NCBI GenBank assembly: GCA_034666125.1
Contig: JAXDML010000010.1
Coordinates: 1-50,259, forward strand
DNA: 50,259 nucleotides
Direction of reading: 5' to 3'
Source: Candidatus Parcubacteria bacterium
Lineage (GTDB): Bacteria > Patescibacteriota > Minisyncoccia > Phycocordibacterales > Phycocordibacteraceae
Positions 956 through 18,229 of the stretch are shown here, in pieces. The notes beneath the pieces are model-generated. The model was given only the letters and a program-made list of their open reading frames with translations. It was not told the origin of the DNA and did not search any database. Made by a program: the position numbers and the translations under genes. Positions within the stretch are counted from its first letter, which is position 1; each line of letters starts with the position of its first letter.

Positions 956-1412
956 CCATATACGTGTTAACAGCAGCCCAAAACCACGTACTACGGAGCG
1001 GATAGGTCGCAAGGCCTTTGCATGCGAATGCGCCGCCCCGGAAGGGGTGTTTTTAATTCAGGGCTGCCGCGAACCACGTGCACCTTGAAAACTGAATACG
1101 TAAGGTAATCAACGAGCTTCTACGAAAGTAGGAGTGAAATTGATATTGCAATCACAGAAAATTAAGTTAAGTGGTATTCAGGTTTCCGCACTGGAAACTG
1201 AAGGGTGCACGGTGGATGCCTTGGCTTATGCATGCGATGAAGGACGTGACTAATCTGCGAAATGCTTCGGGGAGGCGATATGTAGCCTGCGATCCGGAGG
1301 TGTCCGAATGGGGAAACCCGGCCAGTAATGGTCATCTTGCCCGTATGTGGCAAGAAGCGAACCTGGGGAAGTGAAACATCTCAGTACCCTGAGGAATAGA
1401 AAGCAATAGAGT

Positions 1413-1456
1413 GTTGCCTTCCGTCTGTTCGATCACTCGAACGGATGGAAGGCAAC
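1413..1456 (+). other. Hairpin insertion (expansion/IVS-like) in 23S domain I
   Basis: 20-bp stem GTTGCCTTCCGTCTGTTCGA-TCAC-TCGAACGGATGGAAGGCAAC inserted between the conserved AAAGCAA and GCGATTCCC blocks. Confidence 0.7.
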
Positions 1457-1461
1457 TCCCG

Positions 1462-1493
<32 letters not shown>

Positions 1494-1730
1494 GAAGCCC
1501 AAACCTCTTTCTTCGGAAAGGGGGGTTGTAAGGTAGGAGCTCCGTACTTGTACGGCAAGAGTTACAAAGGATGTCTATAGCGGAAGTTGCTGGGAAGCAA
1601 CGCCACAGAGGGTAATGGCCCCGTACGCGAAATACACATCTCTCTTGTGCTCCTATTCTTGAGTAGTTCGAGACACGAATAGCTCGAATGAATCTGCCGG
1701 AACTAACCGGTAAGGCTAAATAATGCATAG

Positions 1731-1776
<46 letters not shown>

Positions 1777-2459
1777 GAGAGGGGAGTGAAATAGAACTGA
1801 AACCGTGTACTTACAAAGGGTTAAGGGGGGCGTTCGCGTCCTTCTTAGCGTGCCTATTGAAGAATGAGCCTGCGAGTGTATGTATGTTGCCCATGGCTAA
1901 GTCCGTTACGGGACGGAGCCGCAGGGAAACCGAGTGTGAATAGCGCGTTAGTAGCATACATACGACCCGAAGCCAAGTGAGCTTGCCATGGGCAGGTTGA
2001 AGTGTGTCGAAAGACACATGGAGGACCGAACCCGTAGATCGTACAACGTCTTGGGATGACCTGTGGCAAGGAGTGAAAAGCTAATCGAACTTGGTAATAG
2101 CTGGTTCTCTCCGAAACAGCTTTTGGGCTGGCGTCGTGTGATCCCTCCGGGGGTAGAGCACTGGAAGGGACAAATAGGGGGAAACCTCGTTGTTCCTATC
2201 AAACTCCGAATACCGAGAGGTTACAGCACGGCAGTTAGACGGTGGGGGCGAAGCTCCACTCGTCGAAGGGGGAAGAGCCCTAGATCGCCAGTTAAGGTCC
2301 CTAAATTAACGCTCAGTACAACTTAAGGAAGTGAGGATCCTTTGACAATGAGGATGTTGGCTTAGAAGCAGCCACCATTTAAAGAAAGCGTAACAGCTCA
2401 CTCATCGAGGGTCCTTGCGCCGAAGATAATCGGGGTTAAGCGTTATACCGAAACTGCGG

Positions 2460-2517
2460 GCTTGCATATTGCATGGTGCGCGCGATTTATTTCGTGTGCA
2501 CCATGCAGTGTGCAAGC
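2460..2517 (+). other. Long hairpin at 23S helix 45 (IVS-like)
   Basis: About 26-bp stem GCTTGCATATTGCATGGTGCGCGCGA / TCGTGTGCACCATGCAGTGTGCAAGC between CCGAAACTGCGG and GGTAGGAGAGCG. Confidence 0.7.
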
Positions 2518-3248
2518 GGTAGGAGAGCGTTCGCATCCGCGATGAAGCCAAAGGGGTGACCCATGGTGGAGCGTTGCGAAGTGAGAATGCAGGCACAAGT
2601 AACCACAATGCGGGTGAGAACCCCGCACGTCGAAAGAACAAGGTTTCCTCAGCTATGATGATCAACTGAGGGTTAGTCGGGCCTAAGGGGATGGCGAAAG
2701 CCGCACCCGATGGACACATGGTTAATATTCCATGACCGATCATGTATGCGATGGAGTGACGGATTGTTGTACCTGCTGCCCATTATTGGATTTGGGTCCG
2801 TGAGTGAGAAGGTCTTCTAGGCAAATCCGGAAGACATTAACTTCGAGCAGAGCGGCAATGTTCTCCCACGGGGGAGCAGAGAGCAGGGAGCACGGTTCCA
2901 AGAAAAACTTCTAAGCTTCAGTACATGACGACCGTACCGGAAACCGACACAGGTGTTCAGGTCGAGTAGACTAAGACGAACGAGTGAGAGGTCCTCAAGG
3001 AACTCGGCAAAAAAGCGGCCGTAAGTTAGCGATAAGGCCTGCCCCCAGCAATGGGGGCCGCAGCGAAAGATTTTCTGCCAACTGTTTACCAAAAACACAG
3101 CTCCCTGCGAACTCGTAAGAGGATGTATAGGGGGTGACGCCTGACCAATGCCGGAAGGTCAAGCACGGAAGGTGATATGTCTTCGGACGTGTTGCTGGAT
3201 CGTATAAGCCCCGGTGAATGTCGGCGATAACTATAATCGTCCTAAGGT

Positions 3249-3443
3249 TCCGTATCTGAGCGATCGGGTACGGAACGGATTGGGACGATTATAGGAGACC
3301 GTAAACAGTTCTGAGAAGATTGCGTCATAAATAGCTACCTCTTTCGACCGAAAGGTTGATTGAATCCGCGACTCAAATGAGAGGCCATACGTCGCGCCCC
3401 TAGCAATAGGGTGAAGATATGGTCCTACTGTGAGGAATAGTAG
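3249..3443 (+). ncRNA. Group I-type intron at 23S position 1931 (E. coli numbering), 195 nt, ORF-less
   Basis: Interrupts CCTAAGGT^AGCGTAATTCC; 5' exon ends in U and intron ends in G; P7 GAGGCCA/TGGTCC, J8/7 GAAGATA, and P3, P8, P9 are recognisable. Confidence 0.85.
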
Positions 3444-4104
3444 AGCGTAATTCCTTGTCTGGTAAGTTCAGACGTGCACGAATGGCGTAATGAGTGGAAA
3501 ACTGTCTCGAGGACTCGCTCGGTGAAAATGCAATACCGGTGAAGATGCCGGTTACCCGTAGTTAGACGAAAAGACCCCAGGAGCTTTACTACAGCTTGAT
3601 ATTGGGGCTGTGTGATTCATGCGTAGCATAGGTGGGAGGCTTTGAAGCAGATCTTTCGGGGTTTGTGGAGCCGCCAGTGAAATACCACTCTTGAATTGTG
3701 CAGTCTCTAACCCGGTTAAGAACTAATCGGGAACAGTGTCTGGCAGGTAGTTTTAGTGGGGCGCTATCCTCCTAAAAAGTAACGGAGGAGTCTATTAAGG
3801 TCCGCTAGGCGCGAATGGAAACCGTGCCGATAGTGTAATGGCATAAGCGGGCTTAACTGCAAGGGGTACATCCCGCGCAGATGCGAAAGCAGAGCATAGT
3901 GAACCGATGGTCCGCCTTAGATGCGGCCAGAGATTAACGGATATAAGTTACCCTGGGGATAACAGGCTAGTTCCGCCCAAGCGTCCATAGCGACGGCGGA
4001 GTTCGGCACCTCGATGTCGGCTCACCTTAGCGCGGGGCTGGAGAAGGTCCCAAGCGTTTGGCTGTTCGCCAATTAAAAAGGTACGCGAGCTGGGTTCAAA
4101 CCGT

Positions 4105-4410
4105 GAGGGAATTGACTAGCAATAGTTGATTCTCTCACCGTTTGAATCCCTTCGAGATTTCTGTTGTCAGAACTTGAAAAAGTGCGAAGTGAATGTCTTT
4201 TCGTCTTGAAATTAAGATAGAACCAACCACGACACGGCGGTCATGCGCAGGAATGTGTATGAACAAACTGACTCATATCGGTAGAACCCTACTCATTGCG
4301 AGGGGCGATACCGAGGGAAACCGAAAGGTGCCCGTAGAGACTGAATGTCAGTCATCGAGAACCGATGAAGTTACAGTCCGATCCCCCGAGTAACCGGGGC
4401 AAACGAAATG
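4105..4410 (+). ncRNA. Group I intron at 23S position 2593, 306 nt, ORF-less
   Basis: Interrupts TTCAAACCGT^CGTGAGACAG; ends in G; P3 ACTGAC/GTCAGT, P4 TCGGTA/TACCGA, P6, P7 GAGACTG/CAGTCC, P8 and P9 present. Confidence 0.92.
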
Positions 4411-4787
4411 CGTGAGACAGGTTGGTCTCCTATCTACTACGGGCGTTGATTCTTGATGAGTGTTGCCCCTAGTACGAGAGGACCGGGGTGAACTGACCTC
4501 TGGTCTACCAGCTGTTGTGCCAACAGCACCGCTGGGTAGCTATGTCGGGACGGGATAACTGCTGAAAGCATATAAGCGGGAAGCCCACTCAAAGATTAGG
4601 AATCGTTATGAGACACCTAGCAGACTACTAGGTTGATAGGCTCTAGATGTACGCACAGCAATGTGTTCAGTCGAGGAGTACTAATATGTCCAATGTTCCC
4701 AGTGCGGAATTCTGTATGTCACTGACTTAAGATAGTGTTTGCATATACCTTACGTATTCAATTTTCCGGAAATAAACGCGCCCGGAA

Positions 4788-4897
4788 CGCTGGTGATTCA
4801 TCGGAGGGGCCATACCCGTTCCCATTCCGAACACGGCAGTCAAGCCCTCTTGAGCCGATGGTACTCCGAAAGGGGGAGAGTAGGTTGTCGCCAGCGT
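4788..4897 (+). rRNA. rrf: 5S rRNA (ends approximate)
   Basis: CCCGTTCCCATTCCGAACACGG and GAGAGTAGG...GCCAG motifs; helix I CTGGTG/CGCCAG. Confidence 0.95.
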
Positions 4898-16152: not shown

Positions 16153-17611
16153 CTTAATGAGAGTTTGATCCTAGCTCAGGATGAATGCTGGCTGTATGGA
16201 TAAGGCATGCAAGTCGAACGGACCGCAAGGTCAGTGGCAGACGAGGTAGTAACACGTACGAACGTACTCCCAAGTCGGGCATAGCCAACCGAAAGGTTGG
16301 GTAATTCCCGATAGTCCCTACGGGGTAAAGATTTATCGCTTGGGAAGCGGCGTGCGTAGTATCAGCTTGTTGGTAAGGTAACGGCTTACCAAGGCTACGA
16401 CGCTTAGGGGAGCTGAGAGGCTGACCCCCACCGATGGGACTGAGACACGGCCCATACTCCTACGGGAGGCCGCAGTCGAGAATCTTCCGCAATGGACGAA
16501 AGTCTGACGGAGCGATACAGCGTGGTGGATGAAGTGCTTCGGTACGTAAACACCTTTTATGTGGGACGAAATTATTGACGGTACCACATGAATAAGGGGC
16601 TCCTAACTCTGTGCCAGCAGGAGCGGTAATACAGAGGCCCCAAGCATTATCCGGAATCACTGGGCGTAAAGGGTGTCAAGGCGGTCATGTTAGTCGTTCG
16701 TAAAATCCGTGGGCTCAACCTACGGCTCGCGAGCGAAACGGCATGACTAGAGGTCGGGAGAGGTGCGTGGAACTCACGGTGTAGGGGTGAAATCCGTTGA
16801 TATCGTGGGGAACACCAAAGGCGAAGGCAGCGCACTGGTCCGAATCTGACGCTCACACACGAAAGCCAGGGTAGCGAATGGGATTAGATACCCCAGTAGT
16901 CCTGGCCCTAAACGTTGCTCGCTCGCTTTACGGAGTATCGACCCTCTGTGAGGCTAAGCTAACGCGGTAAGCGAGCCGCCTGGGTAGTACGAGCGCAAGC
17001 TTAAAACTCAAAGGAATAGACGGGGACTCGCACAAGTGGTGGATCATGTGGCTTAATTCGTAGCTAAGCGAAGAACCTTACCAGGGCTAGAAACCAAGCT
17101 GCACGCCTCCAGAAACGGAGGAAGCCTTCGAGGGTGCTTGGCAGGTGATGCATGGTTGTCGTCAGTTCGTGGCTTGAGCTGTTCCCTTCAGTGGGGTAAC
17201 GAACGCAACCCCCGTTGTCTGTTACTTATGTCAGGCGAGACTGCTCCCTCACGGGAGAGGAAGGTGGGGATGACGCCAAATCAGCATGTCCCTTGATGCC
17301 CTGGGCTGCACACGTGATACAATGGCCGGTACAGAAGGACGCAATACCGCAAGGTGGAGCAAATCCCAAAAACCTGCCCCAGTACGGATTGAGGTCTGCA
17401 ACCGACCTCATGAAGCCGGAATCACTAGTAATCGTAGGTCAGCCATACTACGGTGAATACGTTCTCGAGTCTTGTACTCACCGCCCGTCAACTCAAGGAA
17501 GTTGGAAGCGCCCGACATCTTGTCCAGTACAGGACTACGGCGAGTTCAATGACAGGGAGTAAGTCGTAACAAGGCACGGCTAGCGGAAGCTGGTCGTGGA
17601 ACATATCCAAT
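16153..17611 (+). rRNA. rrs: 16S rRNA (no intron seen; ends approximate)
   Basis: AGAGTTTGATCCTAGCTCAG, GGATTAGATACCC, AAACTCAAAGGAATAGACGG, AAGTCGTAACAAGG. Confidence 0.98.
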
Positions 17612-17868
17612 CGGAATGAGATGTTCGAAAGAACACTCTCCGGTCGATGCTCGGTAGCTGAATGTTGGGAGTCAGTATTTCAGGACGGACTTGTCTGTTC
17701 AGTTGTCTGATTCTCAACATTCAGCTACCGGGTGGGAAATGATACCCATCCCTAAATGGTATTCGGACGCCGGAAAAACGCACCGGTACCGGGTTGGAGC
17801 GCTCAATTGACGCTCTGACCGGGTCGAATAGGCGGAACACAAGAGTACGAAGAATTCTTTGGTTATAA

Positions 17869-17924
17869 GAAAAATGCCGTGCGGTGGATGCTTCTCCGGA
17901 AGCGTTCACCGCACGGCATTTTTC
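17869..17924. terminator. Long hairpin, probably a bidirectional terminator for the 16S transcript and the convergent small ORF
   Basis: 26-bp stem GAAAAATGCCGTGCGGTGGATGCTTC-TCCG-GAAGCGTTCACCGCACGGCATTTTTC. Confidence 0.75.
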
Positions 17925-17927
17925 GGT

Positions 17928-18089
17928 TCAGGCCGGTGAAGGGAGAAATTCCGGAGCGTTGAGCCGCTTCACGGCCCGCCGCCAGATGCGGAGCTTGTTA
18001 CGGTGGCGACGCGCCTTTTCATCGGGGGTGGACGAGAACACCCGTCCTCCCTTGGATCTCGATTCACGGGTAGTACCGCGATGGACCAT
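17928..18089 (-). CDS. Small basic hypothetical protein (53 aa)
   Basis: MVHRGTTRESRSKGGRVFSSTPDEKARRHRNKLRIWRRAVKRLNAPEFLPSPA; TATAGT 11 nt upstream of the ATG and a terminator immediately after the stop. Confidence 0.45.
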   Translation of the reverse strand: MVHRGTTRESRSKGGRVFSSTPDEKARRHRNKLRIWRRAVKRLNAPEFLPSPA

Positions 18090-18153
18090 GTATGTCCGTA
18101 CTATACCTGGAAAAGGGGGGGCGGGTCTGGTAGTATCCACAGGTCAGCCATAT

Positions 18154-18229
18154 GCACGCTTAGCTCAGTTGGTAGAGCACTCGACTGATACTCGAGCGGT
18201 CCTAGGTTCGAATCCTAGAGCGTGCACCA
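18154..18229 (+). tRNA. tRNA-Ile (GAU)
   Basis: 76-nt cloverleaf; acceptor GCACGCT/AGCGTGC; anticodon arm CTCGA-CTGATAC-TCGAG; TTCGAAT T-loop; encoded CCA. Confidence 0.96.

Follow-up and report, generated by a model that had tools for sequence, protein, structure and literature searches.

The stretch of DNA considered here, referred to as the window throughout, comprises 50,259 nucleotides of a Candidatus Parcubacteria bacterium (GenBank assembly GCA_034666125.1, contig JAXDML010000010.1, positions 1 to 50,259 of the forward strand) and contains a 23S rRNA gene (1189–4706) that is interrupted by two introns. Our subject is the first of the two, a 195-nt insertion at 3249–3443 that, read against the exon sequence, is preceded by U and has G as its last base, with ...AAGGU as the upstream and AGCG... 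as the downstream exon border. The 23S covariance model, run across 3150–4500, left 198 nt unaligned, inserted between positions 1953 and 1954 of the model. The site label L1931 was taken over from an earlier interpretation of the bare letters (the sequence-only reading) and agrees with the site lists in the accessible parts of two publications (PMC11270868, PMC1995217). The genome (723 kb, 10 contigs, 97.5% complete) contains a single 23S gene and the element only once, so that no intron-free 23S copy accompanies the interrupted one. The element is a group I-type intron without the whole P4-P5-P6 domain, since its P3 and P7 helices are only 8 nt apart.

The core of the intron, like all intron features described below, lies on the + strand. 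P3 is formed between a 5’-strand ending at 3372 and the 3’-strand at 3391–3396; of the 5’-strand as the sequence-only reading had drawn it, 3368–3372 holds, while C3367 is assignable either to P3 or to a neighboring long-range helix (X/X’, see below). The linker J3/7 (3373–3380), which takes the place of P4-P5-P6, measures 8 nt. It is followed by P7, the guanosine-binding helix of canonical introns (3381–3387 with 3420–3425, A3382 being unpaired), the P8 hairpin with its GCAA loop (3398–3411), J8/7 (3412–3419, containing GAAGAUA), the P9 hairpin (3426–3442, with loop bases AGGAAU at 3433–3438) and the terminal G3443, which occupies the omega-G position and marks the 3’ splice site. The sequence-only reading had assigned P3, P7, P8, J8/7, P9 and the terminal G to these very places. 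Unpaired A3382 between G-C pairs, with letters identical to those of canonical introns, forms a putative guanosine-binding site. J8/7 agrees with the consensus of the Rfam group I model (RF00028), and the consensus letters of P7 are similar, as seen via the alignment of the second intron to this model. There is no reading frame in the L1931 intron. In this anatomy as a whole we place very high confidence.

The architecture is not confined to the window. When 60 relatives were searched by a BLAST-type method, 8 of the 36 genomes from the same genus proved to have the element. A 23-base gapped pattern built from P7 and J8/7, which replaced an earlier and too unspecific 14-base pattern (3 relevant loci among the matches listed), was run on a collection of species-representative genomes and returned 76 loci, 35 of them not short L1931 forms. 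These other loci include group I introns of canonical build from further rRNA sites of Actinomycetota, Bacteroidota, Desulfobacterales and the candidate phyla radiation (CPR); as canonical introns share the pattern, the short form has the P7 and J8/7 letters of an ordinary, complete intron. Excising by script whatever lay between the L1931 exon motifs yielded 41 distinct insertions of 178–223 nt, from which a compact canonical intron (locus L149, 207 nt) was dropped to give an alignment of 40 sequences with their exon flanks. Pattern-free searches added five more forms (L217, L225, L227, L234, L238), bringing the total to 45 distinct P4-P6-less sequences, all from CPR genomes. J3/7 is 5–8 nt long in 40/40 aligned short forms, compared with ~100–550 nt in P4-P6-bearing relatives, and the terminal base is G in 40/40. 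Two subtypes can be told apart. In subtype A, to which the window intron belongs, J3/7 measures 8 nt and a GAGA-loop hairpin is added; in subtype B, J3/7 is only 5 nt long and the P9 loop is enlarged. Model R1, run over 150 genomes of the phylum, brought up only one further short form, with filters strict enough that weak matches may have been dropped; its five other matches were 16S-end or endonuclease-bearing introns.

For the covariation analysis, a structure written from the window sequence was applied to the 40-sequence alignment. Here, 96.4% of cells pair, compared with 84.5% in shuffles; 33 pairs have changed on both sides, a count that 0 of 500 shuffles equaled, and sliding the partners by 1–3 columns lowers pairing to 38–45%. 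Compensatory changes occur in every variable helix of the homologs collected from CPR 23S genes. In the core they affect 3/5 pairs of P3 (for example, C-G in 22 versus U-A in 18 sequences), 4/5 pairs of P8 and 3/3 pairs of the P9 stem. P7 pairs in 100% of cells with invariant letters, these 40 sequences having been selected by pattern; by eye, the variant P7 (GAGACUA/UAGUCC) of L234, one of the short forms found without the search pattern, also pairs. RNAalifold, given no structure, returned an exon-intron helix, a hairpin at the 5’-end of the intron (hairpin A), P10, P2, P7, P8 and P9, and its consensus of the 40 sequences held no three-helix P4-P5-P6-like domain between P3 and P7. On the strength of the covariation, of this consensus and of the uniformly short linker, the view of the element as a group I-type intron lacking the entire domain has stood up.

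The 5’-half of the intron is dominated by pairings with the exons. An internal guide, GCUACCU at 3334–3340, which had escaped the sequence-only reading, is complementary to the ligated exon junction. Its ACCU part (3337–3340) forms a P1 of 4 bp with the last four bases of the 5’-exon (AGGU, 3245–3248, U3248 being the 5’ splice-site base), and its GCU part forms a P10 of 3 bp with AGC at +1 to +3 of the 3’-exon. P1 cells are paired in 100% of the 40 sequences, the two one-sided changes, both C-to-U, leaving the pairing intact, and the same 100% holds for P10, in which one pair is C-G in 23 and U-G in 17 sequences. In P4-P6-bearing relatives the guide reads GCUGCCU or GUUGCCUUAG and lies in the same place. 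A second clamp on the 3’-exon (3444–3455) is formed by the P9 loop (3433–3438), which makes a 6-bp helix with 3450–3455 (+7 to +12) in 96.7% of cells; the one compensatory case is the P4-P6-bearing intron L241, whose host 3’-exon differs at one base and whose loop AGGUAU compensates by pairing with exon AUACCU.

Upstream of the guide, in what would be the P1 loop, lie hairpin A, an invariant A and strand X of a long-range helix. Hairpin A consists of the first 26 intron bases (3249–3274) and has compensatory changes in 10/11 pairs, including the pair made by intron base 1 (U-A 34, C-G 4, A-U 1, G-C 1). Directly 3’ of it comes A3275, and in the RNAalifold consensus columns 20 and 72 are paired as U-A in 40/40 sequences. 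The splice-site U3248 may thus have A3275 or A3337 as its partner, perhaps in alternative states. Strand X (3277–3281) pairs with X’ (3363–3367), which directly abuts P3; a Watson-Crick 4-mer partner is present in 48/49 sequences versus 8.1 expected, with GGAC/GUCC in 26, GGAU/AUCC in 21 and AAAC/GUUU in 1 of them. Next to strand X, an anti-exon strand (3282–3294) forms a 13-bp clamp with 5’-exon bases 3231–3243 (−18 to −6), the 3’-strand of helix 69. All 13 pairs form in 38 of the 49 module-bearing sequences, and the intron follows its host: opposite exon AAUCGU, AACUGU and AACGGU the intron reads ACGAUU, ACAGUU and ACUGUU/ACCGUU, respectively. Among the low-scoring cases are L007, L182 and L205, in which another intron splits the exon strand. 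At L205, L007/L216 and L182, the upstream intron ends 8–14 nt before the L1931 5’ splice site and leaves a micro-exon; as it interrupts the exon strand of the clamp, it would need to be spliced first, implying a splicing order.

The remainder of the 5’-half comprises a conserved unpaired segment, GUAAACAG (3301–3308), nearly invariant in the 40-sequence alignment, a small GAGA-tetraloop hairpin (3310–3319) with compensatory changes in 3/3 pairs, restricted to subtype A and absent in 21/40 sequences (subtype B), and the P2 hairpin (3344–3359), whose loop is GAAA, of GNRA type, and whose pairs are compensatory in 6/6. A canonical P4-P6 hidden within 3295–3366 was considered as well and rejected, as this stretch is taken up by the GAGA hairpin, the guide, P2 and X’, helices accounted for by covariation.

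The fate of the intron in RNA was followed by placing the contigs of one DNA run and of three soil metatranscriptome runs on 2800–4706. The DNA-run contig spans 2800–4492 with 0 differences and no joint. We discount an assembly artifact, including a deletion at 3373–3380, because of this contig and because the P4-P6-less architecture recurs in 45 distinct sequences from separate assemblies, among them one one-contig and one two-contig genome. In each of the three RNA runs, one contig carries the ligated exons, joining 3248 to 3444 and skipping exactly 195 nt, at depths of 412, 108 and 358. Adjacent RNA contigs that match the window without a single difference reach depths of ~50–300, the bins at 3312–3439 have depth 0 in all three runs, and the bin at 3248–3311 has a low depth (68, 35 and 94) that may represent precursor or excised intron. 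The 146-nt exon side of the joined contig equals the window exactly and is at least 2 nt off each of the 55 relatives’ matching loci; as every matching relative differs to this extent, we assign the joined contig to this species, with the caveat that the junction sequence itself is conserved. That the L1931 intron is removed in vivo and its exons are ligated exactly appears likely to us on these data, to the point of being fairly sure of it.

The same data bear on two explanations that dispense with group I splicing. That the intron is kept in mature 23S rRNA, or that this gene copy is unused, is contradicted by the empty intron bins between species-identical flanking contigs, the contig that joins the exons and the presence of a single 23S gene in the genome, and we give this explanation next to no credence. 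Nor do we put much trust in the notion that host nucleases cut out the element and an RNA ligase rejoins the ends, or that the rRNA is left fragmented, which we regard as very improbable. According to the accessible part of the CPR survey (PMC11270868), RNase III is known to excise intervening sequences from bacterial 23S rRNA, and short insertions at other CPR sites have been interpreted in the same way; besides, the Rfam group I model does not match the element. RNase III-type excision without rejoining is, however, at odds with the joined exons in 3/3 RNA runs. The joints coincide exactly with the boundaries that a group I intron would have (U|...G|), and conservation of P7, J8/7, the terminal G and the guide matches that in canonical relatives. 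Group I chemistry carried out by the intron’s own core would therefore be the economical reading. The sequence-only reading had further taken removal from position 1931 to be essential, which cannot count as established knowledge; going by its title alone, one paper reportedly deals with an unspliced L1931 intron in Simkania, which retention in mature 23S rRNA would parallel.

Two further joints in the RNA contigs, from 2831/2833 to 2931 and from ~3604 to 3732–3733, were set aside. They skip 97–99 and 127–128 nt, respectively, with sides of 21–42 letters, both regions are covered in RNA, and the joints probably stem from other organisms that lack these expansion segments.

Descent of the short form can be read from five introns at the same site that have the same 5’-module and P9-loop clamp and keep J3/4, P4, P5 and P6, helices that we identified by eye from motifs common to canonical introns. 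These are L226 (369 nt, from the same genus), L239 (293 nt), L240 (247 nt), L242 (242 nt) and L241 (713 nt; genome G190, contig 69), the last with a LAGLIDADG-like reading frame inside P6. They resemble the short form in hairpin A, X/X’, the 5’-exon clamp, the position of the guide, the GNRA-capped P2 and the P9-loop clamp, and differ from it in retaining J3/4, P4, P5 and P6; RF00028 returned no match to L226 at E ≤ 0.01. As same-site relatives keep a canonical P4-P6, the short form is, judged by this comparison, a deletion derivative. The 5’-module must be older than the loss, because five relatives have both, and it may have permitted the loss of P4-P6 rather than having arisen as its replacement. 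In the simplest history, the starting point would be a canonical L1931 intron harboring an endonuclease gene in P6; a CPR lineage would then have gained the exon-clamp module (hairpin A, X/X’ and the 13-bp helix) together with the P9-loop clamp, a state likely preserved in L241, and P4-P6 would finally have been deleted along with the homing-endonuclease gene within it.

How often this happened is less clear from the tree of 49 intron sequences, which requires 3 changes of the P4-P6 state, at least 2 of them forced by well-supported branches; the tree was built on 190 alignment columns, its long-form branches are long and its bootstrap values had not settled. With long branches and so short an alignment, repeated loss is only hinted at. 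The base opposite the splice-site U is G in 4/5 of the forms with module and P4-P6 and in L149, and A in L241. A U-A splice-site pair as a signature of P4-P6 loss was considered and lost ground, since the L241 and L2593 introns both combine P4-P6 with A; the U-A pair is associated with the loss of the domain, not its consequence.

Some observations concern the distribution of these introns. Subtypes A and B both occur inside the window’s own genus (L008, L009 versus L003–L006, and the tree of 49 introns), and near-identical introns appear under host labels of several CPR classes, the labels Vitreimonas and Proteobacteria probably belonging to mis-binned contigs; the picture suggests that an intron without an endonuclease gene has spread horizontally. 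Introns near the 3’-end of CPR 16S genes (L243–L246, L137, L143, L196, L199) have the same P7 and J8/7 letters, contain long reading frames upstream of P7 and give weak scores with model R1.

The second 23S intron, at site L2593, measures 306 nt (4105–4410, + strand, boundaries read from the exon sequence) and has a canonical P4-P6; the Rfam group I model aligns to it at 4181–4400 with 25.1 bits, below threshold. It has a long contiguous P1, in which ~13 exon bases pair with a guide directly after the 5’-hairpin, and an A instead of G opposite the splice-site U, a layout shared, by eye, by 28 co-resident homologs. The RNA contigs do not cover 4144–4399, and no joint is listed for this intron. 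With the two introns accounting for 501 nt and further insertions for ~90 nt, the 23S gene measures 3518 nt as against 2925 positions of the model. The 5S rRNA gene (4789–4896) follows the 23S gene, and the rRNA genes are otherwise unlinked, with the 16S gene (16153–17611) and a tRNA (16153–18226 for the group) ~11 kb downstream.

The second intron, 661 nt downstream at L2593, offers an explanation in which the P4-P6-less core would be unable to fold or to act on its own and would make use of the second intron’s P4-P6 domain, or even of its entire fold. An L2593 insertion is present in 28 of 29 assessable short-form genes, while the contig of the one remaining gene, L172, contains a different canonical group I core; for comparison, the insertion was found in 2 of 20 members of a phylum-wide 23S sample and in 1 of 4 genes whose module-bearing L1931 intron has its own P4-P6. 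The L2593 introns also share, by eye, the A opposite the splice-site U with the short forms. As to precedent, Doudna and Cech (1995) are said to have assembled the P4-P6 domain in trans with the rest of a group I core in vitro. However, same-genus genes without an L1931 intron have the L2593 insertion in 4 of 5 cases, so that the co-occurrence may reflect inheritance rather than dependence, and as proof of dependence it is weakened by this base rate. Moreover, kin are not independent and the counts overstate the association, the P4-P6 of the L2593 intron is already engaged by its own core, and inspection by eye brought up no motif, complementary or of receptor type, that would link one intron to the other. 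We therefore consider a helper role of the L2593 intron rather improbable, and give somewhat less still to the specific notion that two introns in one precursor share one scaffold as a natural split ribozyme, which would fit 28/29 versus 2/20 as well as the shared U-A pair, two features that clade inheritance could also explain. If the scaffold were shared, an order would be imposed on rRNA maturation.

In our judgment, the probable nature of the L1931 element is that of a naturally miniaturized group I intron that has kept the P3-P7-P8-P9 half of the core plus the substrate helices. Catalysis would use the intron’s own P7/J8/7 site, in keeping with a P7, J8/7, terminal G and P1/P10 guide like those of canonical relatives. 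Helix X/X’ stacks next to P3, and together with the two exon clamps it would keep the 4-bp P1 and the 3’ splice site positioned, a task to which P4-P6 and its J4/5 receptor normally contribute. We prefer the clamps and X/X’ as the substitute for P4-P6 because they are older than the loss, are conserved and change in step with the host. Whether such an intron would splice without a dedicated helper is a narrower question, on which we lean slightly toward the negative.

Alternatively, the intron might be degenerate and depend on protein or on ribosome assembly, with a host chaperone, ribosomal protein or maturase replacing the P4-P6 scaffold. In the accessible part of one paper (PMC6257700), P5-P4-P6 is described as one of two helical domains that are conserved universally among group I ribozymes, and is said to scaffold the catalytic P3-P7 domain. 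Lichen rDNA group I introns lacking ~100 nt are removed in vivo while all self-splicing tests with them failed, as reported in the part of the publication available to us (PMC8527467), and the L1931 intron is likewise spliced in vivo. Against protein dependence stand the intron’s lack of a reading frame, the absence of any match to LAGLIDADG_1, the one maturase family searched for, from the genome (97.5% complete) and the strongly conserved RNA-only clamps, which suggest an RNA solution; no candidate helper protein was identified. On balance, we hold dependence on protein or assembly to be unlikely, though less so than help from the second intron.

Several points weigh against the view of the L1931 element as a miniaturized group I intron. 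In the solved structures of canonical introns, a phosphate of P4 helps to bind a catalytic metal. The canonical U·G wobble at the 5’ splice site is absent, A being found opposite U in 45/45 P4-P6-less forms. Every assessable short-form gene has another group I intron, which makes dependence on a helper possible. The invariance of P7 and J8/7 was partly forced by the search pattern built from their letters, and little or no covariation evidence comes from P1, P10, P7 and the larger part of the P9-loop helix, which do not vary. As for the joint in RNA, its short side measures 26 letters, below the comfort limit of 30, all three RNA runs come from a single study, and as these runs lack DNA from the same sample, an intron-less strain of the same species could explain the joint. 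Finally, RF00028 gave no match to 3249–3443 even at E ≤ 10, in the window or in 3150–4500, so that the group I covariance-model alignment with a P4-P6 deletion, which the sequence-only reading had expected, did not materialize; Rfam scans of L010, L141 and L181 gave matches only to other introns or to the 3’-core.

Comparison with known systems sets the short form apart. Group I introns at L1931 with a LAGLIDADG gene have been described from Thermotoga, Synechococcus and Simkania, with lengths of 654–700 nt. The bacterial and organellar L1931 introns resemble the short form in site, P3, P7, P8, J8/7, P9 and terminal G, but have a full P4-P5-P6, often with an endonuclease gene, and are described, in the accessible text of PMC1995217, as lacking P2. 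Introns L141 (700 nt) and L149 share the P7/J8/7 letters with the short form; unlike it, they have P4-P6, lack hairpin A, X/X’ and the 5’-exon clamp, and place a G opposite the splice-site U (L141 by eye). Ikawa et al. (2000) reportedly engineered a group I ribozyme that worked without P4-P6 or with P4-P6 in trans. Such engineered ribozymes, including that of Doudna and Cech, resemble the short form in that P3-P7 works without a covalently attached P4-P6, but they are laboratory constructs, whereas the L1931 short form is natural, conserved across many species and equipped with its own exon clamps. Reduced introns that are still removed in vivo are also described in the accessible parts of reports on nuclear rDNA of lichen fungi and on the 56–81-nt introns of Phialophora (PMC8527467, PMC3160393). 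As far as those reports go, these introns are eukaryotic and nuclear, and the smallest keep only P1, P9 and P10, whereas the L1931 short form has an intact P3-P9 core and lacks precisely P4-P6. A natural P4-P6-less group I intron did not turn up in the full-text literature, a search that left most subscription journals uncovered and returned only the engineered constructs and the reduced nuclear introns of lichen fungi and Phialophora.

The short forms would also be among the elements that Rfam-based CPR surveys miss. In the accessible part of the CPR survey, 45% (433/968) of 23S insertions are classed as group I by the Rfam model, position 1931 is listed among the LAGLIDADG-bearing sites, and P4-P6-less forms are not mentioned there (PMC11270868). 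Its per-insertion lists may hold these elements as unclassified insertions.

What emerges is a conserved, covarying family of introns in dozens of species that lacks P4-P6, yet is precisely removed in cells, a finding that would surprise specialists. The family constitutes a natural test case for a minimal group I catalyst and a very small starting point for engineered splicing or circularizing ribozymes. For the introns themselves, it opens a view of intron shrinkage after homing-endonuclease loss and may show how extended exon pairing, a neighboring intron or a protein replaces an RNA scaffold.

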